DNA from: Escherichia phage vB_EcoM_G17 | Direction: 5' to 3' (one strand) | DNA: 64,000 nucleotides | Sequence record: MK327931.1 | Shown here: piece by piece, positions 4,632 to 36,889 of the stretch | Numbering within the stretch: the first letter of the stretch is position 1 | How the letters are laid out: each line of letters starts with the position of its first letter | The notes under the pieces: generated by a model | Told to the model about the DNA's origin: nothing | Database searches by the model: none | What the model saw: only the letters and a program-made list of their open reading frames with translations | Program-made: the position numbers and the translations under genes

Positions 4632-5486
4632 TCAGTTATATTCGGTTTTTTCTGTGAAATTTGTTAGTATATCAACACTAAAACTTCGAATAACCTCAAT
4701 CCTGCTTGGCATGAAACGATGTTTATTTTTAATATACAACTCATCATCTTCAATAAAAGACGTAAAAATAAATGTCATATCTTCACGTGGAATTTGTAAA
4801 ATATCACACATTTCATTTGCCGATGCTACTGGTGAATCGTTGTAGTACTGAGAGTATGCACTAGATTGGCGACCGATTATAATAGAATTTCTGATTAGAA
4901 AATTACTACAGTACTGAAAATCTTTGTAGTACTTTTCAATAATGTAAGGCATAAGTGCTTCTTTCACGTCTTCATAACCATTAGTACTATCAATTGCTAT
5001 ACAGTAATCTTCACGTTCTTTTTTCTCATGATGGTAATCATAAACATACTCAAAGAATGAATTTTTATTTAATGAATCATTTAAACCAACTGACCCACTA
5101 TAGTATGATTTTCTATCATTCATTCGATCATCTGGGCATGATGCATACATAGAAGTGTCATGTGATGATGTACCAATATAAATTTTCTTAGTAATATGAT
5201 TATACGCTATGTAATCATAATCTTGAACTCCAGTCAGCATTAACTGGAACATTAAATCATCAGGAACATCAATTAACGGGTACTCAAACTTCGAATATCT
5301 ACTGCGGCAGAAGTTCTTTTCAAATGCTCGGTATGCGATAAAATCTTTTAGATTTTTACAAGATTCATGTTCATGAGCACTACTGCTACGTACATTGACA
5401 TTAGTCGATGTGCAATATCCATCCGAATCTTCGGTGAAGTTACCAGCATAATCCTTATTGTAGTCAACGATTAGATAAAGTTTCAT
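4632..5486 (-). CDS. hypothetical protein, divergent FamA-like
   Basis: ORF track; 284 aa; contains DDLMFQLMLTG resembling FamA core. Confidence 0.6.
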   Translation of the reverse strand: MKLYLIVDYNKDYAGNFTEDSDGYCTSTNVNVRSSSAHEHESCKNLKDFIAYRAFEKNFCRSRYSKFEYPLIDVPDDLMFQLMLTGVQDYDYIAYNHITKKIYIGTSSHDTSMYASCPDDRMNDRKSYYSGSVGLNDSLNKNSFFEYVYDYHHEKKEREDYCIAIDSTNGYEDVKEALMPYIIEKYYKDFQYCSNFLIRNSIIIGRQSSAYSQYYNDSPVASANEMCDILQIPREDMTFIFTSFIEDDELYIKNKHRFMPSRIEVIRSFSVDILTNFTEKTEYN

Positions 5487-5497
5487 ACATCTCCAGA

Positions 5498-5532
5498 CAA
5501 AAAAAAGGACGAGATAACAAATCCCGTCCTTT
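5498..5532 (-). terminator. intra-array rho-independent terminator
   Basis: Hairpin AAGGACG..CGTCCTT at 5505-5531 with U-run on minus strand, between 5539..5844 and 4632..5486. Confidence 0.6.
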
Positions 5533-5538
5533 GGTTTA

Positions 5539-5844
5539 TTAGTGACTTGCCCAGCAGTAAACAGGACGTAGATTTTCCATTGGATTTACTTCAGGCTTCA
5601 GTACTGTTACACGTACTTCATATGGAGTTCCATCTGCGTGATGGAATGTTTCATAATGAATACTTTCAATAAATGTTTCGTATTCTTCTTGTGAACGTGA
5701 ACGTACTGATGATGAATATTTCTTTTTAGAATCTGCTTTAAGTGTAACACTAACTAGTTCTGATTCCTCACCTTCTTCAAGTTTGTTGAAATCGAACTCT
5801 GGTACACCTTCAAACATATCAAATTTCATTCCATTGTCTTCCAT
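5539..5844 (-). CDS. hypothetical protein
   Basis: ORF track; AAAGGA SD upstream. Confidence 0.6.
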   Translation of the reverse strand: MEDNGMKFDMFEGVPEFDFNKLEEGEESELVSVTLKADSKKKYSSSVRSRSQEEYETFIESIHYETFHHADGTPYEVRVTVLKPEVNPMENLRPVYCWASH

Positions 5845-5893
5845 TTTTAAATTCCTTTTATATAATGTTAATTAGATATTTTTAATAAGCAGA

Positions 5894-6280
5894 TTAGATT
5901 GTGTCATACTGTAGTGTTCCGTGACGGAATTTTTCAAGTCGTGCTAGAACTTCTTTTCGTTCAACAATTTCTGGAACATCTTCTTGTAGTTGATCACAAA
6001 CTTCAACAATGAAGTCCCAATCACTCTCACAACTTTGTCGTACCGCCTCAATTGTTTTCCAATCAGTACTGATATCACCATCAGCATTTTGATATACAGG
6101 CCAAACTTTTCCATAATCAGCAATGGATTTGTCATTTAGAATACGAATGGCATTGAAAATCTGACCAGTACTGAAGTGTTTTGTATTCTTCATATCTTCT
6201 AAACAGCATAGCTTTGGCTCACCTTTTACTTCAATGAGTAAAACACCACCAATTGCTTTTAGGACTGAACTTGTATTCAT
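5894..6280 (-). CDS. hypothetical protein
   Basis: ORF track; GGAGA SD upstream. Confidence 0.6.
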   Translation of the reverse strand: MNTSSVLKAIGGVLLIEVKGEPKLCCLEDMKNTKHFSTGQIFNAIRILNDKSIADYGKVWPVYQNADGDISTDWKTIEAVRQSCESDWDFIVEVCDQLQEDVPEIVERKEVLARLEKFRHGTLQYDTI

Positions 6281-6295
6281 CTATATCTCCGTTAT

Positions 6296-6350
6296 CAAAA
6301 AAAAGATGTGAACATTATATCACAAGAATCTAATATGTTCACATTATTTT
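6296..6350. terminator. bidirectional hairpin terminator
   Basis: 10-bp stem ATGTGAACAT/ATGTTCACAT at 6306-6344 flanked by A-run and T-run. Confidence 0.55.
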
Positions 6351-6352
6351 CA

Positions 6353-6662: not shown

Positions 6663-7517
6663 TTATAATGTTTCTTTTATGTTATGTAACATAGTATTAA
6701 CTATGCACATCTTACCACCTAACTTGTAGTAATATTCTAACTTATTAATAATATTACTTTTTAATATATCAAATATTTGATATTCATTTGGATCGAAACT
6801 AAGTTCGAATTGGAATGTATATAAATTGTTAAAGAGGTGAACTAATGATGCATCTGGTGATTCCATTGTAACTGTATATTTTTCACGATAACCAGTACTA
6901 ATCACTACTTCGGATATATCACCTTTCATGTATATGTCAATATTGTACATCATTGGTCTGCCTGTGGCAATATCTTTCATGCGAAAGAATGCAGTACTAC
7001 GATATACAATGCCTTCTGAAACCTGTTCTTGTATAGTGATATTTGAAACTTCACTCTCTTGGAATTTGGACTCGAATGAATGAGTGTAATTTGTTTTTTC
7101 ATTATCCGTGTGCATAGTACATGTGTATTTTCCAAAATCATCTCTAGATGTATATGATTTATCACTGCTAGTTTTATAGAACGAAACACCATTAATATGT
7201 TGTTCTTTATACATCATCGTGTCATGGGATTTGTAGTATGAACAATTAGGTGTTGAAAGAGATTCAAACTTGTTCACGTCATGACAGTAAGAAATAGAAG
7301 AATCGCTATACATTACTACATCACGAATTGCAACTTCTTTTGTAAAACCTTTTTTGACGGAAATTTGAAAGTCATTGTATGGGAAGATTGTATATCCATC
7401 GTATGCATCTGATGTACTGATACCAAATGGTGTAGTAGAATTCAGAAATTCGTTGATATGTTCAAGTACTGAATACTTTTTAAAATTAAGAAAATCTGAA
7501 ATATCTAACATATACAA
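6663..7517 (-). CDS. hypothetical protein
   Basis: ORF track; 284 aa. Confidence 0.6.
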   Translation of the reverse strand: MYMLDISDFLNFKKYSVLEHINEFLNSTTPFGISTSDAYDGYTIFPYNDFQISVKKGFTKEVAIRDVVMYSDSSISYCHDVNKFESLSTPNCSYYKSHDTMMYKEQHINGVSFYKTSSDKSYTSRDDFGKYTCTMHTDNEKTNYTHSFESKFQESEVSNITIQEQVSEGIVYRSTAFFRMKDIATGRPMMYNIDIYMKGDISEVVISTGYREKYTVTMESPDASLVHLFNNLYTFQFELSFDPNEYQIFDILKSNIINKLEYYYKLGGKMCIVNTMLHNIKETL

Positions 7518-8190: not shown

Positions 8191-8688
8191 TTAAGTCACT
8201 GCATTATACTTCTCTATAGCATTAGTAATATTTAATATAGCTTCAGGAACCATTTCTTTATTGTATTCACGTTTTAAATTTTCCATTTTCTTAATAATTT
8301 CCAAGAAAAATGGCAAAATACATGAAGTATCTGTAAAATTACATGAGTACAAAGTACTCATTTGAAATAATTCACCTGAATCAATATTAAGAGATTTGTA
8401 TTCCTTAACAATGTTTTCGTTTGTATTGAAAATATGAAATACTGTTCCCATGTGATGAAGATATACACCATTCTCATTTTGAATATGGCATGGTGTGATT
8501 ACAATAGCAGTGTTGTCAATATTATTTACTATTGATAAACGTAGACTATGTAAACCTAAAATAACAGTACAATCACTTGAACTGCTTTGAATTTGGTCAG
8601 CAGTTTGTGTAACACTTGTAATATTTTCCCCATCAAGACAACTCTTGATTTTATCAAATGAATTTTTCATTGATTTAGTTAGATACAT
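8191..8688 (-). CDS. hypothetical protein, FamA paralog
   Basis: FamA core GELFQMSTLY. Confidence 0.65.
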   Translation of the reverse strand: MYLTKSMKNSFDKIKSCLDGENITSVTQTADQIQSSSSDCTVILGLHSLRLSIVNNIDNTAIVITPCHIQNENGVYLHHMGTVFHIFNTNENIVKEYKSLNIDSGELFQMSTLYSCNFTDTSCILPFFLEIIKKMENLKREYNKEMVPEAILNITNAIEKYNAVT

Positions 8689-9092
8689 TTATGAACACCT
8701 TCGAAATATTTGATTAATGATTTTATCATATCGCTACTAATGCCATGTAAGTCAACACCTAAACACTCGTATTGAAAAAAATCAATATCCTCCAGTGTGT
8801 TTAGATCAATTTCCACCTTATCATGACCCAACGAATTCATAATAACGTTTTTATCATTAATTGTCAAGAAAGTTTTTTTATCTGAACCTAAAAAGATTTT
8901 TACATGTTTTTTTGGCATTACATCATAAGATAAAGATTGTGAACCATAAATGTATATGCCTTCCATTGAACCAATATCTATAAAATATAGACGAATCCCT
9001 TTGTGGTATTTTGACTCCTTAGTGATCGCCTCTATTAGTTCATCTGTGGTTGTTAACCTTGTTTCTTTCTTCTCTAAATTGCTCAAATGCAT
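8679..9092 (-). CDS. hypothetical protein, FamA paralog
   Basis: FamA core IDFFQYECLG. Confidence 0.6.
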   Translation of the reverse strand: MHLSNLEKKETRLTTTDELIEAITKESKYHKGIRLYFIDIGSMEGIYIYGSQSLSYDVMPKKHVKIFLGSDKKTFLTINDKNVIMNSLGHDKVEIDLNTLEDIDFFQYECLGVDLHGISSDMIKSLIKYFEGVHKCI

Positions 9093-9513
9093 AAAATAAT
9101 ACCTTGATCATTTGTAATGTTTCTGACATTACATCAGCAGAAAATTGAACATCAGTGTATTTTACCATAGTACTTTGAGTAAAGAAAGTAGCTTCAATAT
9201 CTTCAAGGTCAAATGGTTCATCAAATAAATTAGTACTGAACATATCAGTTTTTTTCTTATAAGTCAACATAAACTTAGCACTGTATCTCAATACAATTTC
9301 ATCTTTACTTACTAAAATTCGTGCAATGTTCTGTCTACCCAGTGTTGTAATGTTAACATTAAACGTATTCTTTCGTGCCTCAACAATATCAACGAAATAA
9401 CCATCACCTTGGTAAACGTTATGACGAACTTCTAATCCTTGTTGAACTGTATTGAACAGTGCGTCCTGGATAAAATAATTTGCAGTATCGATGTTTCCTA
9501 AAATATCTAACAT
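9040..9513 (-). CDS. hypothetical protein, FamA paralog
   Basis: FamA variant core ATFFTQSTMV; start approximate (overlaps neighbour). Confidence 0.55.
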   Translation of the reverse strand: MLDILGNIDTANYFIQDALFNTVQQGLEVRHNVYQGDGYFVDIVEARKNTFNVNITTLGRQNIARILVSKDEIVLRYSAKFMLTYKKKTDMFSTNLFDEPFDLEDIEATFFTQSTMVKYTDVQFSADVMSETLQMIKVLFYAFEQFREERNKVNNHR

Positions 9514-10043
9514 AACTTCTCCTTTATAGCTGTCATATTTAGAAGAAATTCAGTAAGCAATTCCTCCGTAACATGCTCTGTATACCAGAATATCACAATA
9601 TCTTTTGAAAGTCGTGTATTCATAAAAATATCTACTAACTCTTTGTAGAACTCTAGTGTTTCGAGATTTGTGAGAATTAACGAGTACTGAAAGAGTAATT
9701 CTTCCGTTAGATTAAATTCTGGATAAAGTAAATCATTGAACTCATGTGATGCAGTTTGAACTTTAATTTCTTTGAAGTTATTGGTTATACAACCGGAATA
9801 AATATTTCGGTGCAACTCTCTGTACAACGCAGCATAATCTATGAATTTTGCTTTAGGGTTAAAATCAAGAACACTTTCACCTTTATATGACAATCGGTGG
9901 AACGCCGAGAACATAGTCACTTCCCACGGTTGCTTAATATCTAGCTCAGTAATATCAATATTATTGGACAGAAGAACCGTAAAAATCTCACCAATCTTTA
10001 ATAGTAACTTAGTACGTGCCAGTGCTACCATCGGGTCAGTCAT
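9507..10043 (-). CDS. hypothetical protein, FamA paralog
   Basis: FamA core EELLFQYSLI. Confidence 0.65.
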   Translation of the reverse strand: MTDPMVALARTKLLLKIGEIFTVLLSNNIDITELDIKQPWEVTMFSAFHRLSYKGESVLDFNPKAKFIDYAALYRELHRNIYSGCITNNFKEIKVQTASHEFNDLLYPEFNLTEELLFQYSLILTNLETLEFYKELVDIFMNTRLSKDIVIFWYTEHVTEELLTEFLLNMTAIKEKLC

Positions 10044-10465: not shown

Positions 10466-11050
10466 CTATTTCAGTACTTTAGTCAATGCTTTCACAGCGG
10501 TTTCGAGTTGAGCATAGTCGTTAATTGTAAGGTAATGAATACCATGTGCCTTCATTTCAGCATCTATTTTACTATATAAATCAAACATGTCAAGGATATG
10601 ATTGTATGCATATGAAGTATTTGAAACACACAATTCTTGGAACAAACGTTCTTCCAAGTCATTCACAACTTCTCCATGAATGTCAAGTACTACACCATCT
10701 TTGTAAGTGTAGTACTCTTCACTCCACTCTTCAGAAAGTCGGAACAGTAACGGATTCCCGCCGAACACTTCCATGTCATAGGAATTTATCTCACTAAGTA
10801 GTGTTTCACCTGGTTCTGGTGTGAAGTCAAAATATGCGAGTGTTGTACCATCATAGTCCTTGAGTGATATACCAGTATGATTTAAGGTTACTTCACCATA
10901 ATTATTATTCTTGAACTTGATTTTGATATTAATCTCAATGTATTTTATTGTCTCATCATCACTGAAATTGTAATCAACTTTATACTTTTTCCAAAGAAGT
11001 TTGATATCTTTGAAGTACTTTAATTTACTTTCAATTTCTTTAAAGTCCAT
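10466..11050 (-). CDS. hypothetical protein, FamA paralog
   Basis: FamA core EERLFQELCV. Confidence 0.6.
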   Translation of the reverse strand: MDFKEIESKLKYFKDIKLLWKKYKVDYNFSDDETIKYIEINIKIKFKNNNYGEVTLNHTGISLKDYDGTTLAYFDFTPEPGETLLSEINSYDMEVFGGNPLLFRLSEEWSEEYYTYKDGVVLDIHGEVVNDLEERLFQELCVSNTSYAYNHILDMFDLYSKIDAEMKAHGIHYLTINDYAQLETAVKALTKVLK

Positions 11051-11642
11051 CTGGAACCACCATTTCTTGAATGTGCTTACATTTTATATTTGCCATATTG
11101 GTATGTAATATAATGCTGTGTTTACGCAATGATTTTACTTTGTAGCACTCATTGAGTACTGAAATAATTCCCCATAACTCTTCTACACTAATAGTGATAG
11201 GTTCACTTGTACTCAGTTGCATCAGTGCTGCTTGAACATCATCTTTGTTATTAATAGTGAACTGGATTCCTCTTTTGAGAATTTTAGTTTTTGGATTGTA
11301 CTCAGCTAATACATCACCTTCTGGATAACCCTCATGAAGTAATAATGTTGTTTCAAAATCACCGCAGTTGAAGTTAATTTCATCATAATCAGGTACACAA
11401 ATGTTCCCTTCCCCGTACTCATTAGGTTCAGATTCTAGTGTTAAAATACGCTGAGTCTCATTGCTCAGGATGATAGAATCATTCCAGTACTGGGTAGTGA
11501 ATGCTCTACGTTTCTTTTGAAAGCACATACTCGACATTGAACCATACTTCTTGTATATGGACTTCTTGAACTCAATAGCAGCAGGAGCCACCTTGATAAC
11601 TTCACGAATTAAGTCAATAGCTTCTTGATAACTTTTTCTCAT
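11040..11642 (-). CDS. hypothetical protein
   Basis: ORF track; no clear FamA core. Confidence 0.55.
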   Translation of the reverse strand: MRKSYQEAIDLIREVIKVAPAAIEFKKSIYKKYGSMSSMCFQKKRRAFTTQYWNDSIILSNETQRILTLESEPNEYGEGNICVPDYDEINFNCGDFETTLLLHEGYPEGDVLAEYNPKTKILKRGIQFTINNKDDVQAALMQLSTSEPITISVEELWGIISVLNECYKVKSLRKHSIILHTNMANIKCKHIQEMVVPDGL

Positions 11643-12190
11643 TTATCGTATCCATATAAAATATGATCTAGTGTACTTTGTACTTCTTCATGAAAGAATG
11701 AAGGGTAAACTTGTATCAATTTATCTTTAAGTTCAAGGGAATGGCATAGTTCTAATGTTTTGTAACAATCCTCGTACTGTGCCAGATCATGTAATGTACT
11801 TAACTGAAAATGTTGTTCTTCGGAGTACAATAAATCATAAACCATATTATCGGATAAAAGATTAGATTTGATTGAAGGATCAAGTACTGTCTGGTGGTGA
11901 CCAACCCAAAAGATAGCTTTTGAGTTAATGTTATTACAACCCCATCCTTTCCCCATCTTTTGGTGAATAGCAAATACACAGGAATCATACAAATTAATGC
12001 TCAGACGTTCTTCGTCTGCATGGATAGTTACACCATCAATAGATAGTGTATATTTGAAATCCATAGCCCCCTCACTTCGTGCACGAGAACTAAAGACCAG
12101 ATATCGATGAATTATGGTATTGATTTTATCTGTCCATCCATCAACACATTTGGATGCACATAATGTAAAAAGATCATGATTGTAGTTCAT
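11639..12190 (-). CDS. hypothetical protein, FamA paralog
   Basis: FamA core EEQHFQLSTLH. Confidence 0.65.
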   Translation of the reverse strand: MNYNHDLFTLCASKCVDGWTDKINTIIHRYLVFSSRARSEGAMDFKYTLSIDGVTIHADEERLSINLYDSCVFAIHQKMGKGWGCNNINSKAIFWVGHHQTVLDPSIKSNLLSDNMVYDLLYSEEQHFQLSTLHDLAQYEDCYKTLELCHSLELKDKLIQVYPSFFHEEVQSTLDHILYGYDK

Positions 12191-12251
12191 AAAATTCTCC
12201 TTTAGGACAATGTATCATACAAAAATACCAGAGTCAACCCCTGGTACGAAT

Positions 12252-12833
12252 TTAATCCATCATAAGTGGGATAATTGCCCATATCTTTTTCATAATCATA
12301 TCTTCAGTAAAAACAAATGTTTTAGGAGCAGTATATGATATTGACACACCAAATGGAAGTTTGATTGCATCATCAATTATATTATGAATATCAAACCATG
12401 TTTTAACATAATCATACGGTGGAAGTTCATGAATTGTACTTAACTGAAAGTAATTCTCTTCACCAAAATCACTATATTCAATTTCACAAATTTTAGTGAA
12501 TTGATGATTCCATTTAGATATAATACTATTTTTATTATTGTACATAGTAGTTCTATGCATAAAACCATTTTTGCTAGTATGATTTGATATTACGTTTTCT
12601 TCAATGTCAGTATCTATTTTAAAATTCATATCAAAGTTGTAGTACGGACTTGACGATTCTTTGAATTTTAAATGTAAATTGCGATTGTTATTAATTTCAA
12701 TTTCAATACAAAACACATCTGAATCAAAACGATTAAACTTGTAATCGTTATCTTCCGGTAGATTCTGTATTTTTTTCATAATACTAAGCATAGGGTGTAC
12801 TACACTTTTAATAAAATCATTTGTTATTTTCAT
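12252..12833 (-). CDS. hypothetical protein, FamA paralog
   Basis: FamA core EENYFQLSTIH. Confidence 0.65.
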   Translation of the reverse strand: MKITNDFIKSVVHPMLSIMKKIQNLPEDNDYKFNRFDSDVFCIEIEINNNRNLHLKFKESSSPYYNFDMNFKIDTDIEENVISNHTSKNGFMHRTTMYNNKNSIISKWNHQFTKICEIEYSDFGEENYFQLSTIHELPPYDYVKTWFDIHNIIDDAIKLPFGVSISYTAPKTFVFTEDMIMKKIWAIIPLMMD

Positions 12834-13326
12834 AGTATTCCTTTAGAACTTTATATGATTCAACAATACTATCTTGTGTATAATTTGAACTATATACAAC
12901 AGCACTTGTTTTAGTTGACCATAGATATGACATAAAGGTTATAACACTACTACATGGACTTAATGTATTGTTTTGAAATTCAATTTCTTCAATGTTATCA
13001 GTACTGGTATAGATGAATTGGAAAGTACCCATTGATTTATTGGACAGCGATACTATAGTAGAATCCGTACCAGGACTATACATGAATGTCTCATTACTAA
13101 TTGAACTATCATTAGTATATGATGGTTTGGGAATATAAATCAAACGCATGATATCGCGTTCAAGACCTGACTTATTACTTTCCACCAAAGAAATCATATC
13201 TATATTTGATATATGTTCAACACTGACATGGAACTTTTTGTCGAGAATCACATCTCCATGAGAATTTTTATATGAAGACAAAATCTCATACATCTCAACT
13301 AATTCGCGTGCATTTAATAAACTCAT
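12817..13326 (-). CDS. hypothetical protein, FamA paralog
   Basis: FamA core EEIEFQNNTL. Confidence 0.6.
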   Translation of the reverse strand: MSLLNARELVEMYEILSSYKNSHGDVILDKKFHVSVEHISNIDMISLVESNKSGLERDIMRLIYIPKPSYTNDSSISNETFMYSPGTDSTIVSLSNKSMGTFQFIYTSTDNIEEIEFQNNTLSPCSSVITFMSYLWSTKTSAVVYSSNYTQDSIVESYKVLKEYYENNK

Positions 13327-15519: not shown

Positions 15520-15528
15520 GCCATAAAC

Positions 15529-27582: not shown

Positions 27583-27669
27583 ATAATCAAATCACCTTTG
27601 TTTAAATTACAAAAGTACTGATAACTGTGCTTAAAAGAATGTACTGATATTAAAAAATCAAATTCCATC
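27583..27669 (-). pseudogene. 5-prime gene fragment duplicated from 26783..27139
   Basis: About 87 bp nearly identical to 27056-27141 (start region of 26783..27139), encodes MEFDFLISVHSFKHSYQYFCNLNKGD then diverges. Confidence 0.5.
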
Positions 27670-28045: not shown

Positions 28046-28243
28046 CTTAATCTCTACTATAATTAATAAGGTAAACTCCAATATAAGGAGAACGTTCGGC
28101 GGCGGGGTATTTTTTGTTTCAAGAAACATGAACTGTACTCTGAAAAACACAATATAAAACTTTATATTAAACATATACCTTAGCATGTTTTTCAGCGGAA
28201 ATTTTTTTGACCCCCCCCTGCGGCCTGTCAAAATGAAACGTCT

Positions 28244-28846: not shown

Positions 28847-29470
28847 TCATACATTAACAACTTTATCGATGTAATCTTCTAACATATCAATATATCTGGT
28901 ATTGGTTCTAACTAAAAGGTATGCAAATCCAGAAAACTCCTGTGTATAATGCTTTACAGCGTACATACAACGAAGCTTATCATTGTCATACATTGTACTG
29001 TACTGAAACAAACTCTCGTCTGATAGCTCTAATAACGCTTGGGCTTCACTTCTCGTGAACTTCATAGGGTCATGTACTGCATCACAAAAACAAACCTGTG
29101 TCTCGCTATTGAAACCCTGTGATAGATATATACCTTCACACTCTGAACGCACCGATACTGCATTATAACTATGTGTTGCCCCCATCATATCTGAACTCAA
29201 AACTAAAATCAACCCATTTTTATTTTTAATCAACAAATCTGACTTAAGGGATTTGATCTCCGTATGGGAAATATCACCAAATCTTCCTGGGACTTCAAAC
29301 TTATCAACGTTGTATACAATCTTTTGTACTTGCTCTTTTAAACGCTTAATTGCACTTCTGTCTTTTTCTAATGTATCTAATAAACTCATTGAACTCATTG
29401 TACTTTCCTTACATATTTGTACCGAACAAAACGGAACTTTGAATGCCATTAATCGACACTTCATGTACAT
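28847..29470 (-). CDS. hypothetical protein, FamA paralog
   Basis: FamA core DESLFQYSTMY. Confidence 0.65.
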   Translation of the reverse strand: MYMKCRLMAFKVPFCSVQICKESTMSSMSLLDTLEKDRSAIKRLKEQVQKIVYNVDKFEVPGRFGDISHTEIKSLKSDLLIKNKNGLILVLSSDMMGATHSYNAVSVRSECEGIYLSQGFNSETQVCFCDAVHDPMKFTRSEAQALLELSDESLFQYSTMYDNDKLRCMYAVKHYTQEFSGFAYLLVRTNTRYIDMLEDYIDKVVNV

Positions 29471-29753
29471 ATATATTTTGTCTGAACAAAGGAACTAATT
29501 GAACTAAACTCGTTTGCATAATAATATGCATATGTACATTGTCATATGCCGTTTCGTATTGGAATCGTGCAGCTTCATCTTCTATGAAATTCGGAACTTG
29601 GACTGGATTCTCAAAATTTGTCCTTGTACTGAACTGTACATCATTGTCCTGTACCTTAATACCATATGAATTATCATTGTTATCAACTACATCAAATTCA
29701 ATTAAACTACCATCTTTACTGACGTTTACTATATAAACCGAAAATCGACTCAT
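29409..29753 (-). CDS. hypothetical protein, FamA paralog
   Basis: FamA core EAARFQYETAY; start approximate. Confidence 0.55.
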   Translation of the reverse strand: MSRFSVYIVNVSKDGSLIEFDVVDNNDNSYGIKVQDNDVQFSTRTNFENPVQVPNFIEDEAARFQYETAYDNVHMHIIMQTSLVQLVPLFRQNIYVHEVSINGIQSSVLFGTNM

Positions 29754-30265
29754 AAACCTATTTCCTCTAAATCTTTGACAAATGTATCATAATCCGATAA
29801 TGACAAAAATATGTCTGTACTGATGTTTTGACGTAATGTATTAAACAAATTATGTACCTGTAATAAATCAGGTGCATAAATCAGGGATTGCTGGAAATAC
29901 GATTCTTCTGTATCTAATATATCCCTGCACTCAATTTCACGAACTCGTTGGTATATTGAATTTAATAATACATTTTCATCTTTGAGCATTGGAAGGTATC
30001 GGATGTACATGTGCTCCATCAACTCATCCTGGATTGAACCCCTGAACTGCAACACGTATTCAAAACACATCACTACATCTTGTAGGTAATTGGCACTGTA
30101 ATTATTGCTGTAAACAATCTTATGACTTCTGAACTCATCATCATTTCTGAACCAATTGTCACCTACTTTGGTGTACTTATGACTAAGCTTCCCATCCTCC
30201 AACGCTCGAATGAACTTCATAATGTTAATTGCAAAATCATATGAATGATGCTTGTGTTGATGCAT
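29750..30265 (-). CDS. hypothetical protein, FamA paralog
   Basis: FamA core EESYFQQSLIY. Confidence 0.65.
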   Translation of the reverse strand: MHQHKHHSYDFAINIMKFIRALEDGKLSHKYTKVGDNWFRNDDEFRSHKIVYSNNYSANYLQDVVMCFEYVLQFRGSIQDELMEHMYIRYLPMLKDENVLLNSIYQRVREIECRDILDTEESYFQQSLIYAPDLLQVHNLFNTLRQNISTDIFLSLSDYDTFVKDLEEIGL

Positions 30266-30469: not shown

Positions 30470-31093
30470 CTATATATCCAACCCTTTTACAACATCTACG
30501 AAATGTTCAAACACTTCTTTTGAAAAATAACCACCTTCACAAAAAAGCATACTAAACGGTGGCAGCATGTCCGATAACTCTTTAGCTAAATTGATTTCTG
30601 CTCTTAACTCTTGAACATCAATGATATCATGTACTAAAGATAATTGAAACATGAATGCATCTACATCTTCATTCATTTCTGAATTGTAATATAACTCTTC
30701 AGGGAATTTGTCGGTTTCGTAATAATAAAAAACTTTATTGTTGAACACACCACTAATAGGAACATCATTTTCATCTTTCTTTGAAATGTTTGTTTCCCAT
30801 GACTCTATATTATTAGGAACAAAAAAATCATAGGCTGATTTTGAACCCTGTACTGAATCCAACTTTATTCCATAATATTCCGTATCCATGTATTTCTGCT
30901 GTAATGTAATACCACGTGTACTGACATTCACTTGGAATATATCATCTTTATCTGGAACACTAAATGGAATACATAACACTGAATTCTCAGGGTATTTGGC
31001 AATGAATGCATCCAGCACTTTATTAAGCACCGGAATGGCAATTTTACTGTACTGCATCAAATCATACATTTTAATTCTGGTCATATCATTCAC
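30470..31093 (-). CDS. hypothetical protein, FamA paralog
   Basis: FamA core DAFMFQLSLVH. Confidence 0.65.
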   Translation of the reverse strand: MNDMTRIKMYDLMQYSKIAIPVLNKVLDAFIAKYPENSVLCIPFSVPDKDDIFQVNVSTRGITLQQKYMDTEYYGIKLDSVQGSKSAYDFFVPNNIESWETNISKKDENDVPISGVFNNKVFYYYETDKFPEELYYNSEMNEDVDAFMFQLSLVHDIIDVQELRAEINLAKELSDMLPPFSMLFCEGGYFSKEVFEHFVDVVKGLDI

Positions 31094-31625
31094 CTGTGTA
31101 TGTTTTCACCCTTAGCGATTCAAAATCCCATACATCACTGATTGTACCATTGTGCCTGTAATCATAATATTCTACTAATACATTATACAATAACTTCAAC
31201 GATACAAATTCATGATTCCACGGAGCTTTATTGTCATGAACACATTTGGTGATATAAGGTATAATATATAAACTAAACAACACTAATGGTGAATGTATAC
31301 ATTGCATTTGAAAATATTCTTCTTCTTGCATACAATGTTCAGGAATAATTAGATCATAATGTGTCTCAAATAAATGTAAACCTATTGTGGTTTTTTTCGT
31401 ATCACATGCGTACCATATTGTACTATCCGAAATAAATGGAATGATACCATTATTGTTTGCAATGTACATCATATGGTAAGAGCGATTTGTCTTGTTAAAT
31501 ATCTCGATACTTTCGATATTACTACAAATCATGTATTCAAGGCAATCAATGATCTTATCTTTAAATGTACCAATTTCATTGAATGACATTGCTTTCTGTA
31601 CTTTTGATACTGTTGTACTGCTCAT
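31086..31625 (-). CDS. hypothetical protein, FamA paralog
   Basis: FamA core EEEYFQMQCIH. Confidence 0.65.
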   Translation of the reverse strand: MSSTTVSKVQKAMSFNEIGTFKDKIIDCLEYMICSNIESIEIFNKTNRSYHMMYIANNNGIIPFISDSTIWYACDTKKTTIGLHLFETHYDLIIPEHCMQEEEYFQMQCIHSPLVLFSLYIIPYITKCVHDNKAPWNHEFVSLKLLYNVLVEYYDYRHNGTISDVWDFESLRVKTYTGE

Positions 31626-32164
31626 ATGTTCTCCTTAAAAAAATCCAAATACTCTTCATTGAAAGCATATGTATCATCTTTTATGTTATGCACCACATAA
31701 TCATAAAGAGCTATGAATGCAGGGATTATGATCTTACATGATTTATTATTGTATTTGTACTGCTCCAAATCAACGGTGTTCAATTTAGCAATAAGCATAG
31801 CAGCAAAGATATCTTCATGGCGGTGTACTGTGCTGTACTGAAAATACTCATCCTCTCCAATATCGGGATGATATAACGGTATAACCAAATTATTACGAAT
31901 TGACATTTTATATTTTTGTAATGCAGCTAAATGCATGAACCACAATCTATCTTCATGGAAAGATGGAAAAATAATTTTGTCTGTGCTAATAAAAATTTCT
32001 TCATTTCGATTATTTGTCACAAGAGGTGCATACATTTTAATTTTTGCAGATTTAATAATTAAATTAAAAATATAATGAATCTTATGAACTGCACTTGATG
32101 CATCTTCGTATGTACTTGGGATTATGAAACTCACTATATGTTCTCCTTTAAAATGAATACACAT
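31622..32164 (-). CDS. hypothetical protein, FamA paralog
   Basis: FamA core EDEYFQYSTVH; true start possibly GTG a few codons in. Confidence 0.6.
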   Translation of the reverse strand: MCIHFKGEHIVSFIIPSTYEDASSAVHKIHYIFNLIIKSAKIKMYAPLVTNNRNEEIFISTDKIIFPSFHEDRLWFMHLAALQKYKMSIRNNLVIPLYHPDIGEDEYFQYSTVHRHEDIFAAMLIAKLNTVDLEQYKYNNKSCKIIIPAFIALYDYVVHNIKDDTYAFNEEYLDFFKENI

Positions 32165-32191
32165 GATAACAGCTTTGGTCTTCTATGTCAA
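32163..32191 (-). promoter_or_regulatory. internal sigma70-like promoter
   Basis: -35 TTGACA 32186-32191, 17-bp spacer, -10 TATCAT 32163-32168. Confidence 0.4.
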
Positions 32192-32200
32192 TACCAAAAC

Positions 32201-32239
32201 GAAAAAAGCCCATATCTTACGATACAGGCGTTATGGGCA
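32201..32239 (-). terminator. intra-array rho-independent terminator
   Basis: Stem GCCCATA/TATGGGC about 32208-32238 with U-run on minus strand; overlaps stop of 32217..32723. Confidence 0.5.
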
Positions 32240-32723
32240 TGTTGATTTGAATTTCATTGTACAAATCATCAATATATAGACATGAAAAAAACACACTATC
32301 TTGTACTATATTGTTGTGATAAAGCATTTTAAATACTACATAAAAAAATAAATCAATATCATCGTGGACTAAATTCTGCTGGAACCACCACTCGTCTGTT
32401 AAATCTTGTGCATTAAAATCATCAGGAACTTCAATGAACGACATATCACAATCTTCTTTGTACTCAAACCACATGTCGTCATTCGGATAACGTTCATGCT
32501 TCTCTGGGTAACAATTGCTGGGATTAAATGTTAAAATATTAAACCCCGTAGAGCAACGTTCTTTATTTAAAAATGTATTATTCCATACCTGATATTTTTC
32601 ACCAACATCAAGCTCTTCTGTTACTGATTTTATTGCACATAATGTACTGTATATTGTTTCTATCTTGTGAACATATTTAAATGCAGCATCTAAGCTGAAC
32701 TCTAAATCATACATGTACTGCAT
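32217..32723 (-). CDS. hypothetical protein, FamA paralog
   Basis: FamA core DEWWFQQNLVH. Confidence 0.65.
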   Translation of the reverse strand: MQYMYDLEFSLDAAFKYVHKIETIYSTLCAIKSVTEELDVGEKYQVWNNTFLNKERCSTGFNILTFNPSNCYPEKHERYPNDDMWFEYKEDCDMSFIEVPDDFNAQDLTDEWWFQQNLVHDDIDLFFYVVFKMLYHNNIVQDSVFFSCLYIDDLYNEIQINMPITPVS

Positions 32724-33043
32724 AAAATTACCTCAACTAAAGCAAGAACTGTATTAAATTCAACTATACTTGTAATTCCTTGAAGGTACATGTACTTTGC
32801 TACTACATATTTCTGTACTAAATTATAATTATTAAATTCCTCAAAATTGTAATTTAGAACAAAATCTGTACTCAAAAATATCTTATGCATCTCTAATGCA
32901 CTTTGATAATACGCGTACAACTCACGGATATCAATACTGGTTAAATTATATTGTTCATATCTATGATACGGGATGGCTTCAATTTCAATACTATAAAACC
33001 ATTCTCTTAACTTATTAATATCAAATGTATTATTCAGCTTCAT
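32702..33043 (-). CDS. hypothetical protein
   Basis: ORF track; no family core. Confidence 0.5.
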   Translation of the reverse strand: MKLNNTFDINKLREWFYSIEIEAIPYHRYEQYNLTSIDIRELYAYYQSALEMHKIFLSTDFVLNYNFEEFNNYNLVQKYVVAKYMYLQGITSIVEFNTVLALVEVILCSTCMI

Positions 33044-33596
33044 AACTCAATACCTCCATTAAACACTCATACACACCATCAATCGCATAAGCACAAAAAT
33101 TGAAATTAATTTTGTGATTCTTGTGTAATGGACTATTGTGTACTGTACTCATTATGACATTATAAAATAACAAACGCACTGGTACAAGCATTGAACCTTG
33201 GAAAAATTCTTCCTCTGATTTATATGTATTGTACTCTATTGTTTTGTTCGTTTCTTTATCATATGTTACCATTACTAATGGGGAATTTTTATTATACCAT
33301 GCGTACTCTAAATCATTCTTTCCAATAACAGCACCAGGTGCGAAATCCAAAAGACCAATAACACTACGGGCATTTGGTATATCTGGTGTATTGAATCGTT
33401 TATCAAAATGACTCGTGCACGCAATATATGTATTGTACTTCGATGGAATAATACCAATACATTTGTGGAAATGACGCTTGTGATATTTCTGGGCATTATA
33501 TAAGGATGCAACAATACAAGCTAACTTTTGTCCCATAAGGATTGCATTAGCGTAGGTGTACTGAATTTCATTGCTGGTACGGTACTTCGAGGTCAT
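33030..33596 (-). CDS. hypothetical protein, FamA paralog
   Basis: FamA core EEEFFQGSMLV. Confidence 0.65.
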   Translation of the reverse strand: MTSKYRTSNEIQYTYANAILMGQKLACIVASLYNAQKYHKRHFHKCIGIIPSKYNTYIACTSHFDKRFNTPDIPNARSVIGLLDFAPGAVIGKNDLEYAWYNKNSPLVMVTYDKETNKTIEYNTYKSEEEFFQGSMLVPVRLLFYNVIMSTVHNSPLHKNHKINFNFCAYAIDGVYECLMEVLSYEAE

Positions 33597-33879
33597 AATA
33601 TTTCCTTTGCCATATCATGGGCTTAAAATCAATAACAGCTTTCTGTATCTTTTTTAATAATAAGACATCATAACCACCCGTGTCAATCACTAATTGCTGT
33701 TGGAACAATTCTTCATCGGATAATGTATTGAAATCTACAAAATAATCTGTAACTATCGAATCATTTAAATGTGCCATGTACCAACCTGAACTTCTTGAAT
33801 AAATCAAATTCCACCCATCGTCATCATCTTCTAATTCAACATAAATCATATCTGGGGTATACATCATTTTATACTTCAT
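33568..33879 (-). CDS. hypothetical protein, FamA paralog
   Basis: FamA core DEELFQQQLVI. Confidence 0.6.
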   Translation of the reverse strand: MKYKMMYTPDMIYVELEDDDDGWNLIYSRSSGWYMAHLNDSIVTDYFVDFNTLSDEELFQQQLVIDTGGYDVLLLKKIQKAVIDFKPMIWQRKYYDLEVPYQQ

Positions 33880-34417
33880 AACTATATCCTTGCATTAATA
33901 AATCATAAACTACATGGACTAAATTTAATTGAATATAAAATTTTAAACCTTTAATTAATGAATTCAAATGCATTGTACTGAATAACATTAGATACATCAT
34001 CTCATGCGGTTTTGTGATTAATGATTTTTGAAATACGCCAGCTTCATCATAAGGGTCTATGAACTGAAATTTGTCTTCATCATAATTTGTATTGGAATGC
34101 TGATATATAAAATAATCATCATTGGTATTGTACCACAAATATCCTTCGAATCCTGTACTAACATCTTTGGTCAATGGGGATGCTGATACTGGATTTGAAC
34201 TGATTAATGCACCTACATCAACAATCCCCGTTGTATCATATTCGATTTCAACATCAATATCAATGTATTTCCTTGCGATATCTGCGTTTATGGACAAATA
34301 TAAACTACCACCTGTCCTCTGACTCAGGATTCCATCTATATGCGATATAGGATGGTTGTTATTGAGGATAAGCATTATTGTACTTATCTTGTGTGCTAAT
34401 AACTCTATCTCATTCAT
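33869..34417 (-). CDS. hypothetical protein, FamA paralog
   Basis: FamA core EAGVFQKSLIT. Confidence 0.6.
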   Translation of the reverse strand: MNEIELLAHKISTIMLILNNNHPISHIDGILSQRTGGSLYLSINADIARKYIDIDVEIEYDTTGIVDVGALISSNPVSASPLTKDVSTGFEGYLWYNTNDDYFIYQHSNTNYDEDKFQFIDPYDEAGVFQKSLITKPHEMMYLMLFSTMHLNSLIKGLKFYIQLNLVHVVYDLLMQGYSYEV

Positions 34418-34765: not shown

Positions 34766-35158
34766 CTAATCTTTCCATTTAATAGGATACTCCTTTCCTT
34801 GTACTATATATGACAAAATCCATCCGTAATGAATAGGATGATTTTTGTCTGAATCAGGAATAAAATATAAAGCTGTACTTGGATTATGACTGAATAAATC
34901 TTTATTGTCAAATGTAAAATGTGATAATATAATTTTCCTTGCACTTGGACGAATAACATTCTTAACACTGAACTCTGAACCTTTGTATTTCTCCGATAAT
35001 TCAAATAATGCATCTGTAATTAAATCACTGATCTCTTGGATTACAAAATTCTGATAAAATGCATTAATCTCTTTTAACTCTGTATACAATTCACTTCTGG
35101 TATTCAAAAGAAATATTACTTTTTTAAGATCCTGAACTATTTCTGGATTCATATTCAT
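34766..35158 (-). CDS. hypothetical protein
   Basis: ORF track. Confidence 0.55.
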   Translation of the reverse strand: MNMNPEIVQDLKKVIFLLNTRSELYTELKEINAFYQNFVIQEISDLITDALFELSEKYKGSEFSVKNVIRPSARKIILSHFTFDNKDLFSHNPSTALYFIPDSDKNHPIHYGWILSYIVQGKEYPIKWKD

Positions 35159-35390
35159 TTATCTCATTCTGTAACTTAAGCATCAAAATTTGCATATTAA
35201 TTTTTTGTAAAAGGTGCTTGATAAATTTCTGTGCCATTTCTTCTTGTTCTTTTGTACCAAGATAAAATAACAGATTAAATTCTGATAATCGCAAAGAAAA
35301 ATCTTCATCACCACCCTTTAAACAAAAATCCCTGTACTTTGTAGCGTACAAATATTGGTTTACCTTTTTATAATACCCTGTGTTTTGCAT
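35124..35390 (-). CDS. hypothetical small protein, FamB paralog
   Basis: FamB core YLGTKEQEEM. Confidence 0.6.
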   Translation of the reverse strand: MQNTGYYKKVNQYLYATKYRDFCLKGGDEDFSLRLSEFNLLFYLGTKEQEEMAQKFIKHLLQKINMQILMLKLQNEINEYESRNSSGS

Positions 35391-35578
35391 ACTATCTCCG
35401 TTCGCAACGAATTTATATAATAATGAACAAATTGTTCTTGTGAACGTGTTCCAAGAAAAATAAACATATCAAACTCTGTTGTTTTTAAATTCAATGCATC
35501 TTTTGTAAAATTCCTGTTGAATTCCCTGTACTTTTGGGTCTTCCATTCTTGATTAATTGTCTTGTATATCGATTTCAA
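35360..35578 (-). CDS. hypothetical small protein, FamB paralog
   Basis: FamB core FLGTRSQEQF. Confidence 0.6.
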   Translation of the reverse strand: MKSIYKTINQEWKTQKYREFNRNFTKDALNLKTTEFDMFIFLGTRSQEQFVHYYINSLRTEIVCKTQGIIKR

Positions 35579-35879
35579 TGATTCTCCCTGATGTACCTTG
35601 TATTAGCTTATCATACATATCGAGCATCACTTTTTGAATACTAATTAGTACTGGCATCGTGCAAATATCAATGTCGTATACTAAGCTGTACTGGAATAAT
35701 TCATCTTCCTGCATTTGTACTAAATTAGGTAAAGGATAATTGTCTGCCTCTTCATCCTGGTACTTGAAATGCATAACACCATCCTTTTTGTACAAAAGAA
35801 TGTCAATATCACCTAACTCATCAGCATAACCAAAAATACATATACTCGATGTTTTTGCTATATTAAATTTCATCTCCAC
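35553..35879 (-). CDS. hypothetical protein, FamA paralog
   Basis: FamA core EDELFQYSLVY. Confidence 0.65.
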   Translation of the reverse strand: MEMKFNIAKTSSICIFGYADELGDIDILLYKKDGVMHFKYQDEEADNYPLPNLVQMQEDELFQYSLVYDIDICTMPVLISIQKVMLDMYDKLIQGTSGRIIEIDIQDN

Positions 35880-36115
35880 CTCTCTCCGTCAGCACAAGAG
35901 TACTGGTACGTTGTCGTTAGGGTAGGGACCATGTTTGTAATGGGCATATTATTAACAATAACGGTAACAGGCATAAGAATCGTCTCTACTCTACTCTGTC
36001 CTGTCCTTGTACAATTCATCTTCTGCATTTCATCTGAATCCATGAAATACAATACAAATGGTGCAATCCCAAGAACAATACACAAGACGATAAGGAAATT
36101 TAAAAAATTTAACAT
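35870..36115 (-). CDS. hypothetical small membrane protein
   Basis: ORF track; hydrophobic N-terminal segment LNFLIVLCIVLGIAPFVLYF. Confidence 0.5.
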   Translation of the reverse strand: MLNFLNFLIVLCIVLGIAPFVLYFMDSDEMQKMNCTRTGQSRVETILMPVTVIVNNMPITNMVPTLTTTYQYSCADGERWR

Positions 36116-36144
36116 AATTTTTACCCTATGATTAACGTTAGTGT

Positions 36145-36173
36145 ACTATATCAGTAATGAAAAGTACTGTCAA
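36145..36173 (-). promoter_or_regulatory. internal sigma70-like promoter
   Basis: -35 TTGACA 36168-36173, 17-bp spacer, -10 TATAGT 36145-36150. Confidence 0.4.
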
Positions 36174-36174
36174 G

Positions 36175-36579
36175 CTAGTATTGCACTGTTCTAATGAAAG
36201 TACCTTTACTCATGGATTTAAGCTTATGAACCTCTTCCTGCATACCCTTAATTAACCCTAAAGGTATAGGTAAATCATGTACTAAGCTGTACTGAAAGTA
36301 TTCTTCTTCAGATAAAGTACTAACATCTGGAACGCCAATTTTAGTTATATAATCTTGATGTGTTGACCAATAAATTATATCTTCAGTACTATTGTACTCC
36401 CCATATACTGAACAATATTGATGAATATCTTTCCTGTACCCTTGAGCAATAAAGAACTTATCTAATGCATTACCAGCATTAATAGAATTTACTTCGATTG
36501 TCACAGTACTTGAGCTTGTATAACTCTTAATATTATCAGTACTCTTAATACTCAACGATGTGTTCTTCATAATCACCAT
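36175..36579 (-). CDS. hypothetical protein, FamA paralog
   Basis: FamA core EEEYFQYSLVH. Confidence 0.65.
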   Translation of the reverse strand: MVIMKNTSLSIKSTDNIKSYTSSSTVTIEVNSINAGNALDKFFIAQGYRKDIHQYCSVYGEYNSTEDIIYWSTHQDYITKIGVPDVSTLSEEEYFQYSLVHDLPIPLGLIKGMQEEVHKLKSMSKGTFIRTVQY

Positions 36580-36889
36580 TAGGCTCCTGTTTAGATTCTT
36601 TCATTAGTACTATCATCTTATGTACTAATGGCATAGGGAACTCTAAATCCCATACTAATGATTCCTGGAAGTATTCCTCTGGTGATAAAGTACTTAAATC
36701 TTTAATATCAACGTGCTTGTATATTTTATTTTCGTAATTAACAAATGATATATATAAATCACTAACATAAGAATCATAGGTAATTGTGAATGGCTTACCC
36801 TTGTAATCCATTACATCTCTACATAGACTACTTTTGATATATGTATGTTCAAATGATTTATATACCTTGAGTTGTATATTAGTTTTCAT
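36545..36889 (-). CDS. hypothetical protein, FamA paralog
   Basis: FamA core PEEYFQESLVW. Confidence 0.65.
   Translation of the reverse strand: MKTNIQLKVYKSFEHTYIKSSLCRDVMDYKGKPFTITYDSYVSDLYISFVNYENKIYKHVDIKDLSTLSPEEYFQESLVWDLEFPMPLVHKMIVLMKESKQEPNGDYEEHIVEY

Follow-up and report, generated by a model that had tools for sequence, protein, structure and literature searches.

The 64,000-nt stretch of Escherichia phage vB_EcoM_G17 analysed here (MK327931.1; "the window" means this whole stretch) carries a tandem paralogue family, Family A, in about 45 diverged head-to-tail copies on the minus strand between positions 8191 and 36889, and the family is genuine and far beyond chance. Family A is an ancient multigene family whose products are small, soluble and mostly acidic, do not belong to the virion and have a common FQxS core, and it fills about 70-75% of the 28.7 kb array. 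The explanation that we favour, and to which we give about an even chance, is that the copies form an early, cytoplasmic battery of host-takeover or counter-defence effectors on a common scaffold, in which the FQxS helix would be shared and the N-terminal half would be specific to each copy. The window DNA is 100% identical to Escherichia phage Sharanji (OR545507.1), a 350-kb jumbo myovirus of the genus Asteriusvirus that belongs with 121Q, PBECO4 and phAPEC6 among the 'Rak2-like' phages, and the genes of the array are all annotated 'hypothetical protein'.

An all-against-all BLAST comparison of the non-overlapping set of minus-strand open reading frames (ORFs) linked 28 ORFs, which served as the seed of a profile hidden Markov model (HMM). 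Iterated to convergence (E<1e-3), the HMM defined Family A as 43 minus-strand ORFs in 8191-36889, 42 of them full-length and the remaining one a 54-aa fragment (27507-27671). Four further ORFs (29409-29753, 14316-14900, 22498-23034 and 8679-9092) have acidic residues followed by FQ at the expected place and lie below HMM significance, with an HMM E of 0.004 or an hhalign P of 0.001-0.03; once degenerate candidates are considered (11040, 'LMQLSTS'; 9040, 'FFTQSTMV'; 13323), the motif-bearing ORFs below HMM significance total 4-8. A broadened HMM, made from 150 representatives and the members found in Klebsiella phage RaK2, added no significant member in the window. The original prediction, made from the sequence alone, had counted at least 48 paralogues starting at 4632. 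That figure needs a loose definition of membership, the count by HMM significance being 43, with four probable or possible members besides, and the left boundary has to be moved, as the first solid member begins at 8191 and the ORF at 4632-5486 has no HMM support.

The core itself, which the same prediction had placed 25-60 residues from the C-terminus, proved to be positionally conserved, at a measured distance of 39-75 residues. In the HMM-guided alignment the F-Q pair is invariant, all 42 full-length members having it at the same column, within the local consensus [ST][DE]E-x-[YLF]-F-Q-x-S-[TL]-[VIL], and the five motifs originally quoted were all located (18855-19331, 20622-20984, 24096-24548, 16062-16625 and 32217-32723). 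A strict pattern, FQ.[SN][TLCVM][VILM], is present in 38 of the 69 minus-strand ORFs in 8191-36889 versus none of the 101 elsewhere in the window (residue shuffles: mean 0.16, maximum 3). The profile positions of highest conservation are D97, E103, E104, F107, Q108, S110, L/T111 and V/I/L112, together with three tyrosines of the sheet; Q is found in every one of 132 sequences from four lineages, and S or the acidic residues are replaced in several members (FQAALV, FQELCV, FQMQCI). Since synonymous codons vary at F, Q and S (Phe TTT 22, TTC 20; Gln CAG 25, CAA 17; Ser both AGY and TCN), the constraint acts on the protein, and this free codon use rules out the motif as a DNA-level element such as a recombination or regulatory site.

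The members are listed below from first to last in transcription order, with the strand in brackets (minus throughout), the motif string as read from the HMM alignment or the sequence, and the HMM E value unless another statistic is named.

36545-36889 (-), Family A, 114 aa, SPEEYFQESLV, E=3.1e-17; first in transcription order
36175-36579 (-), Family A, 134 aa, SEEEYFQYSLV, E=8.7e-24
35553-35879 (-), Family A, 108 aa, QEDELFQYSLV, E=2.6e-17
33869-34417 (-), Family A, 182 aa, DEAGVFQKSLI, E=2.1e-23
33568-33879 (-), Family A, 103 aa, SDEELFQQQLV, E=7e-19
33030-33596 (-), Family A, 188 aa, SEEEFFQGSML, E=1.2e-25
32217-32723 (-), Family A, 168 aa, TDEWWFQQNLV, E=5.6e-25
31622-32164 (-), Family A, 180 aa, GEDEYFQYSTV, E=4.3e-15
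31086-31625 (-), Family A, 179 aa, QEEEYFQMQCI, E=4.4e-20; no reciprocal orthologue in fEgEco12
30470-31093 (-), Family A, 207 aa, VDAFMFQLSLV, E=1e-21
29750-30265 (-), Family A, 171 aa, TEESYFQQSLI, E=9.9e-26
29409-29753 (-), probable divergent member, 114 aa, EDEAARFQYETAY, E=0.004, hhalign P=0.01
28847-29470 (-), Family A, 207 aa, SDESLFQYSTM, E=8.4e-26
27668-28231 (-), Family A, 187-aa ORF from a TTG start, DDAALFQAALV, E=2.2e-24
27507-27671 (-), N-terminal fragment, 54 aa, E=3.5e-07; present in phAPEC6 as gp446c
27139-27510 (-), Family A, 123 aa, SEEEFFQESTV, E=5.8e-16
26783-27139 (-), Family A, 118 aa, DTAELFQESLV, E=9e-26
26427-26786 (-), Family A, 119 aa, DDGELFQAALV, E=9.9e-20
25926-26417 (-), Family A, young five-copy sub-array, 163 aa, SEEYYFQQSTV, E=2.2e-35; modelled
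25454-25924 (-), Family A, young sub-array, 156 aa, SEEYYFQQNTI, E=1.3e-26
25014-25457 (-), Family A, young sub-array, 147 aa, TEEYYFQQSLI, E=1.4e-28
24526-25014 (-), Family A, young sub-array, 162 aa, SEEYYFQNSTL, E=1.1e-34
24096-24548 (-), Family A, young sub-array, 150 aa, SEEYYFQNSTV, E=2e-34
23785-24099 (-), Family A, 104 aa, HESFIFQESLV, E=6.6e-10
23031-23480 (-), Family A, 149 aa, TEEGYFQGSTV, E=1.1e-22
22498-23034 (-), probable divergent member, 178 aa, FDEQCFQLSCT, hhalign P=0.0034 (C-terminal half against the motif region)
21583-22143 (-), Family A, 186 aa, TEENIFQNSVL, E=2.9e-17
20622-20984 (-), Family A, 120 aa, QEDELFQESLV, E=6.2e-17
20255-20698 (-), Family A, 147 aa from a TTG start, GEEEMFQYSTV, E=1.3e-22
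19935-20276 (-), Family A, 113 aa, DEGELFQESLV, E=6.3e-14
19391-19975 (-), Family A, 194 aa from a GTG start, NQEYYFQLSLL, E=6.6e-24
18855-19331 (-), Family A, 158 aa, TEEEFFQYSTV, E=9.2e-28
18364-18858 (-), Family A, 164 aa, SEEMYFQGSCI, E=1.8e-27; collinear RaK2 orthologue L002:19823-20314, BLAST 3e-12
18036-18398 (-), Family A, 120 aa, SEEELFQQSTI, E=3.1e-18
17639-18052 (-), Family A, 137 aa, TPDELFQYSLV, E=5.6e-14
17148-17651 (-), Family A, 167 aa, SEESYFQNSLI, E=1.2e-28
16062-16625 (-), Family A, 187 aa, LESAMFQLSLI, E=9.9e-23; second one modelled; RaK2 L002:22429-23037, BLAST 5e-14
15551-16117 (-), Family A, 188 aa, TDEVIFQLSTI, E=4e-21
14316-14900 (-), probable divergent member, 194 aa, RDAFIFQKSLL, hhalign P=0.0011 (residues 108-160 against the motif region)
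13751-14329 (-), Family A, 192 aa, VEEELFQMSTV, E=1.2e-23
12817-13326 (-), Family A, 169 aa, IEEIEFQNNTL, E=9.8e-15; RaK2 L002:25849-26340, BLAST 9e-9
12252-12833 (-), Family A, 193 aa, GEENYFQLSTI, E=5.3e-26; RaK2 orthologue L002:26328-26921
11639-12190 (-), Family A, 183 aa, SEEQHFQLSTL, E=8.6e-16
10466-11050 (-), Family A, 194 aa, LEERLFQELCV, E=1e-15
9507-10043 (-), Family A, 178 aa, TEELLFQYSLI, E=5.7e-12; RaK2 orthologue L002:29109-29660
8679-9092 (-), possible (weak) divergent member, 137 aa, LEDIDFFQYECL, hhalign P=0.029 plus motif
8191-8688 (-), Family A, 165 aa, DSGELFQMSTL, E=9.5e-17; last in transcription order; RaK2 L002:30564-31061, BLAST 5e-11

The ORF at 27668-28231 is probably over-extended at its TTG start, its phAPEC6 counterpart gp447c being 125 aa long. 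The genes are closely packed, with only about six intergenic gaps of more than 40 nt, and the start/stop coupling noted in the original prediction is borne out by the junctions inside the array (ATGA 13 times, GTGA twice, TAATG five times and TGATG once). Rfam and tRNA scans of the window gave no matches. Directly downstream of the array on the same strand lie two 284-aa ORFs, 4632-5486 and 6663-7517, both of which were tried as members or double-domain members and rejected: neither has HMM support (hhalign P=0.025 and 0.18, respectively), and the look-alike in the former, 'DDLMFQLMLT', lies 205 residues from its C-terminus. Their positional counterparts are ORF441/ORF445 in RaK2 and 0241/0242 in Salmonella phage 7t3, and 6663-7517 has BLAST homologues in both Asteriusvirus and Alcyoneusvirus, with a further one in a single Erwinia phage that covers about a quarter of the ORF.

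The members are about 105-205 aa in size and soluble, with a negative grand average of hydropathy (GRAVY) and a median isoelectric point (pI) of 4.9 versus 6.1 in other ORFs, ranging from 4.05 to 9.07. The AlphaFold2 (AF2) model of 25926-26417 is a single confident domain (predicted local distance difference test, pLDDT, 83.9; predicted template modelling score, pTM, 0.78) in which an N-terminal helix, six beta-strands, the short EEYYFQQS helix, a long helix, a strand and a final helix follow one another, with a pLDDT of 92-97 over the blocks that hold the motif. The same element order was obtained for a second, distant member, 16062-16625, from a 132-sequence alignment (pLDDT 65.9). The models suggest a common alpha/beta domain made of an N-terminal amphipathic helix, a six-stranded beta-meander, a short core-bearing helix and one to three C-terminal helices, and the [ST]-E-E that opens the predicted motif helix looks like an N-capping box.

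The original prediction could not match the core to any characterised family, and neither could we: Pfam-A, NCBIfam, PADLOC and the sequence and fold searches of the PDB were all without match. When 42 members were scanned against the curated families, only isolated, single-member, sub-threshold matches appeared (best Pfam E=0.0058, NCBIfam 0.0015, PADLOC 9e-05). PDB sequence profiles gave nothing even at E<=10 with the 132-sequence profile, and no structural neighbour of the predicted model was found among PDB representatives. In PHROGs the members are spread over about 35 groups (12674, 13866, 9317, 15629 and others) and those listed are all of 'unknown function', so that the family is neither united nor annotated there. 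Fold matches in BFVD, which give weak structural hints on how far the family extends, were only to uncharacterised proteins of 121Q, RaK2, SP27, GAP32, fHe-Yen9 and Serratia BF; a profile search of 1.84 billion representative proteins returned only 153 relatives of 65-208 aa, most with FQxS; the named matches of a word-indexed search were all 'hypothetical', on contigs of roughly 350 kb; and tBLASTn with the HMM consensus matched only inside the family's own genus. Two known classes were tried and rejected. DNA-mimic anti-restriction proteins of the Ocr/ArdA type would agree with the median pI, but the range is wide and there is no fold match; for SUKH-type or polymorphic-toxin immunity proteins no PDB structural neighbour was found, and the flanking genes are hypothetical, Dam and cytidylyltransferase-like, with no toxin domain.

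Arrays of the same family are present in other genera. RaK2 (Alcyoneusvirus) has 31 members at the syntenic place, upstream of two ORFs of roughly 290 aa, Dam and a cytidylyltransferase, and phage 7t3 has a syntenic array of 17 significant members and four motif-only ones. In fENko-Kae01, a relative of 7t3, the start of the first member is at 19,759, 23 bp past the reported length of the direct terminal repeat (DTR; 19,736 bp, PMC13070987). A Family A homologue is also carried by E. coli phage EJP2, and two distant metagenomic (uncultured) relatives have the same array layout, one of them with 20 HMM-significant members in a 20-kb locus; no such array was found at the cytidylyltransferase locus of the PA5oct-like Pseudomonas phage Paride. 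For six members of the window (those starting at 18364, 16062, 12817, 12252, 9507 and 8191) the best RaK2 match beats any match within the genome and the order is the same, indicating that part of the array predates the genus split; the RaK2 orthologue of 8191-8688 (L002:30564-31061) is likewise the last of its array. Judged from these sequence comparisons, the expansion took place before the lineages of E. coli (Asteriusvirus), Klebsiella (RaK2) and Salmonella (7t3/Munch) phages diverged, and Family A appears to have no detectable relatives beyond the Rak2-like jumbo phages.

Selection was assessed on orthologues of Sharanji and phage fEgEco12, as gene-wide Nei-Gojobori ratios of non-synonymous to synonymous substitution rates (dN/dS, or omega). 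Reciprocal best hits in fEgEco12, in conserved order, were found for 38 of the 43 members, leaving five copies in Sharanji and six in fEgEco12 without a partner, so that about 12% of the members differ between the two phages. The values, with omega given as the median, were:

Family A orthologues: median dN 0.150, median dS 0.56, omega 0.26, omega >1 in 0 of 37
Downstream neighbours: median dN 0.077, median dS 0.853, omega 0.09, omega >1 in 0
DTR genes: median dN 0.015, median dS 0.100, omega 0.11, omega >1 in 0
Family B (see below): median dN 0.097, median dS 0.278, omega 0.34, omega >1 in 2 pairs

Constraint in Family A is about 2-3 times looser than in the flanking genes, with a pooled regional omega of 0.29 in the N-terminal part, 0.18 in the motif core and 0.26 in the C-terminal part. 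Between paralogues, whose median pairwise identity is 17% (two pairs exceed 40%), dS is saturated and hence carries no selection signal. Copies that are mostly 1:1 orthologues, with an omega of 0.26 and none above 1, point to long-term retention and not to gene-wide diversifying selection; the original prediction had taken the divergence between copies for a sign of such selection, and these values, the 38 syntenic orthologues and the six collinear RaK2 members do not support it. The divergence reflects the age of the paralogues and the retention of distinct ones, and the family is functional and retained under moderately relaxed purifying selection, with a slow birth and death of copies.

Traces of turnover are nonetheless visible. 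The young sub-array (24096-26417) consists of five copies with 66-77% nucleotide identity, detected as DNA repeats (25926-26417 belongs to repeat family D1). The fragment at 27507-27671 is 92.9% identical in amino acids to 26783-27139 and contains an 85-nt repeat that is 96% identical, and this truncated copy was made by a recent 85-nt duplication of 26783-27139. Roughly half of the related genomes lack the promoter-proximal half of the array (about 27-36 kb) or have a diverged version of it. Across 8000-37000 of the window, dS against fEgEco12 swings between adjacent orthologous genes from about 0.06 to more than 3, which suggests gene-by-gene mosaic recombination with diverged phages.

By homology with fEgEco12, whose physical termini have been confirmed by restriction mapping (PMC13070987), the DTR occupies about 43,400 to 64,000 of the window and the physical left end lies near 64,000; the DTR of Sharanji is reported as 20,668 bp (PMC11895373). 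From this end the order is the DTR, an array of a 72-aa family (Family B) and Family A, all transcribed inward, and in fEgEco12 the array occupies kb 27-56 counted from the confirmed left end. The Sharanji GenBank record starts and ends in the middle of the array (window 27632/27633), inside the fragment ORF. This is not a physical terminus, and in 121Q, phAPEC6, SHEFM2K and other relatives the DNA runs on unbroken across 27632. The regulatory-like sites in the array are the following:

36145-36173 (-), sigma-70-type promoter-like site, TTGACA-17-TATAGT with TG, in one of the few intergenic gaps
32163-32229 (-), terminator-like hairpin (32229-32208) followed by a promoter-like site, TTGACA-17-TATCAT, in the gap 32165-32216
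19365-19394 (-), perfect-consensus promoter-like site, TTGACA-18-TGnTATAAT, upstream of 18855-19331
15491-15552 (-), terminator-like hairpin (15552-15533) and promoter-like site, TTTACA-17-TATACT
12225-12247 (-), terminator-like hairpin in the gap 12191-12251

Neither strand of the 64 kb window, which has 30-39% GC and contains ATAAATA three times, carries the T4-type late promoter octamer TATAAATA, and none of the array counterparts gp404c-gp466c is among the 62 proteins of the phAPEC6 virion proteome. In PA5oct, of the Rak2 clade, the genes of the DTR belong to the early class and the phage depends on host RNA polymerase for transcription (PMC7318152), and in CBB the equivalent block of short hypothetical genes has been proposed to be early, from RpoD-like promoters (PMC5259590). 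Operons with sigma-70-type promoters directly inside the left DTR make early transcription by host RNA polymerase most likely. By analogy with these relatives, the promoters, the lack of the late promoter, the DTR-adjacent position and the non-virion products would place the array in the early host-RNA-polymerase class. The counter-defence or host-range roles first proposed for the genes thus survive in part: the early region, the sigma-70-type promoters, the non-virion products and Dam downstream fit accessory host-interaction genes, and it is the gene-wide diversifying selection that finds no support.

Family B comprises 32 minus-strand ORFs of about 63-96 aa with a core [FL]LGT[ND]YQE followed by a helix, located in 36879-43265, 22133-22520 and 35124-35578. 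It starts at the inner DTR boundary, has four copies interspersed in Family A and no Pfam match, and is apparently absent from phage 7t3. A relationship between the two families, considered for their YQE and FQES cores, was rejected on an hhalign probability of 0.2%. In the DTR itself (about 43,700-62,000, minus strand), nearly every small gene is headed by a cassette of its own, in which a near-consensus sigma-70 promoter (TTGACA or ACTTGCA, N17, TATAAT) is followed by GTTTTACAT and by a GC hairpin in the 5'-leader, GGGGAGAA...TTCTCCCC; this cassette recurs more than 20 times. A longer intergenic element is repeated on the minus strand at 44587-44832, 47435-47580, 50535-50849, 53919-54128 and 60524-60949; it consists of a hairpin around a promoter-like TTGACT...TATTAT (AAAGGGATTGACTCCGGTCAGTCCCTTTGCTATTATATA), then ...CCCAC.GGGTGC.GGAGTGTATCTA, has no Rfam match, and could encode a small RNA or act as a regulatory module. 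The DTR gene at 47581-48222 (-), with a weak, sub-threshold Pkinase match (E=0.003) and a Ser/Thr kinase annotation in fEgEco12 and Turkey3, may accordingly be a host-takeover kinase.

Several explanations compete with an effector battery. Arms-race determinants (counter-defence, immunity-like or host-range) diverging under diversifying selection would account for the extreme divergence of the paralogues, for an orthologue dN that exceeds that of the downstream and DTR genes (0.150 versus 0.077 and 0.015; omega 0.26 versus 0.09-0.11), for the difference in members between Sharanji and fEgEco12 and the variable promoter-proximal half, and for the counter-defence-type genes close by, Dam here and RnlA and PseT in RaK2. 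We consider this explanation unlikely, however, with no orthologue pair above 1, a pooled omega of 0.18-0.29 in all parts of the protein, copies that are mostly 1:1 orthologues and in several cases collinear across genera, no signal in the saturated paralogue dS, and no match to PADLOC models or solved anti-defence proteins. Long-term 1:1 retention under purifying selection would also suit a role inside the phage, as regulators or chaperones of its own replication, transcription or assembly, each paralogue being paired with a paralogous component; other big paralogous sets do exist (phAPEC6, for one, has 'DNA condensation' proteins of roughly 41 kDa), and the two 284-aa proteins (4632-5486 and 6663-7517) always adjoin the array. 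Yet the array sits in a sigma-70 promoter region with no late-promoter motif, its proteins are not in virions, and its copy content differs among close relatives, which is unusual for core machinery, making such a role quite improbable.

The clustering of the most conserved positions (D97, E103, E104, F107, Q108 and S110) and the invariant Q could alternatively mean that D...EE..FQ.S is a ligand-binding, metal-binding or catalytic site, and the members small enzymes or 'sponges' for signalling molecules; this is very doubtful, as they resemble neither enzymes nor solved sponge proteins, 40 or more co-resident copies of one enzyme would be unprecedented, and the FQAALV, FQELCV and FQMQCI members substitute S or acidic residues. 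Least credible of all, we give almost no weight to functionless duplicated DNA or to a protease cleavage site, E-x-x-Y-x-Q/(S,G). Tandem duplication has been put forward as a way for phages to reach jumbo genome size (Hua et al. 2017, PMC5646251) and one truncated copy is present, but the frames are intact, omega is 0.26 and the array is conserved across genera, all of which argue against genome padding. The motif does resemble the potyviral NIa/tobacco etch virus (TEV) site, with E, F and Q fitting P6, P2 and P1 and three members reading YFQG or FFQG. Against cleavage by an NIa/3C-type protease, P1' is variable, the conserved Ser falls at P2', and the motif lies inside a confidently predicted helix; no protease of this type is known in Rak2-like jumbo phages.

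The genes form translationally coupled operons behind sigma-70-type promoters just inside the left DTR, and according to the effector-battery explanation host RNA polymerase would transcribe them early and their products would act in the cytoplasm on the host, for takeover or counter-defence. The FQxS helix would serve all copies as the nucleus of the fold or as a docking surface, and the N-terminal helix and sheet, which vary, would give every copy its own specificity. The paralogues persist as distinct orthologous lines, with copies still being duplicated, truncated or replaced at a low rate. A number of points weigh against it. Neither experiment nor homology points to any molecular activity or target, and early expression leans on analogy with relatives and on promoter-like consensus matches whose total is not above the shuffled expectation, only their placement in rare gaps being suggestive. 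A gene-wide dN/dS below 1 gives no hint of an arms race, the acidity is moderate and uneven (pI 4.05-9.07), and the fold models are predictions, the second of only moderate confidence (pLDDT 65.9). Finally, [ST]EE could serve just to cap the N-terminus of the helix, and F-Q could be a pair that the fold depends on, with no docking needed. A bolder version, which we regard as a long shot, is that this new fold would be a modular adaptor, with the FQxS helix docking all copies on one hub (a host machine, a phage protease or a regulator) while the variable part picks a different host target or defence protein for each copy.

Whatever its activity, roughly 20 kb, about 6% of a 350-kb genome, is devoted to one family that no database recognises, and since it has been kept copy by copy from a time when the E. 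coli, Klebsiella and Salmonella lineages had not yet separated, it must matter to these phages, several of which are candidates for phage therapy. The definition of the family (HMM, invariant F-Q, boundaries and orthologue map) turns dozens of 'hypothetical proteins' per genome into one question. If the copies were indeed target-specific host effectors on a common scaffold, they would represent the largest such repertoire known in a bacteriophage.

Several known systems are comparable. T4-like phages have plastic early regions, in which small non-essential early genes lie behind sigma-70-type promoters and are thought to be host-adaptive. The array shares with those of T4, a distant relative, small overlapping ORFs, host-type promoters and variability among relatives; the T4 early regions, however, are assortments of unrelated ORFs, whereas here one family makes up most of the array. 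In eukaryotic viruses, the multigene families (MGF) of African swine fever virus (ASFV) and the ankyrin/PRANC proteins of poxviruses act on immunity or on ubiquitin ligases. They too consist of dozens of diverged tandem paralogues near a terminus, with a variable body, a short conserved C-proximal motif and a copy number that varies between strains, and the adaptor, if real, would be the bacteriophage counterpart of these terminal multigene families of large viruses; the likeness is an analogy only, as there is no sequence or fold relationship to Family A and an adaptor function here is hypothetical. Bacterial immunity-gene arrays (SUKH-type and other immunity families; the esaG strings, bioRxiv 10.1101/2022.01.07.475358) are alike in being strings of non-identical paralogues for small cytoplasmic alpha+beta proteins. 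The nearest parallel is in jumbo phages themselves. Literature searches returned only passing remarks on paralogues, with no family definition, motif, structure, distribution or selection analysis: tandem paralogues are mentioned in one sentence for 121Q and phage G by Hua et al. (PMC5646251) and in one sentence for RaK2 (PMC3622015). These arrays are the same phenomenon, for 121Q and RaK2 in the same genomes, namely a lineage-specific tandem expansion of small genes of unknown function, to which the motif, the predicted fold, the cross-genus synteny and the selection regime are added here. The expansion is thus of a kind already known in jumbo phages, and what is new is a family without known relatives.

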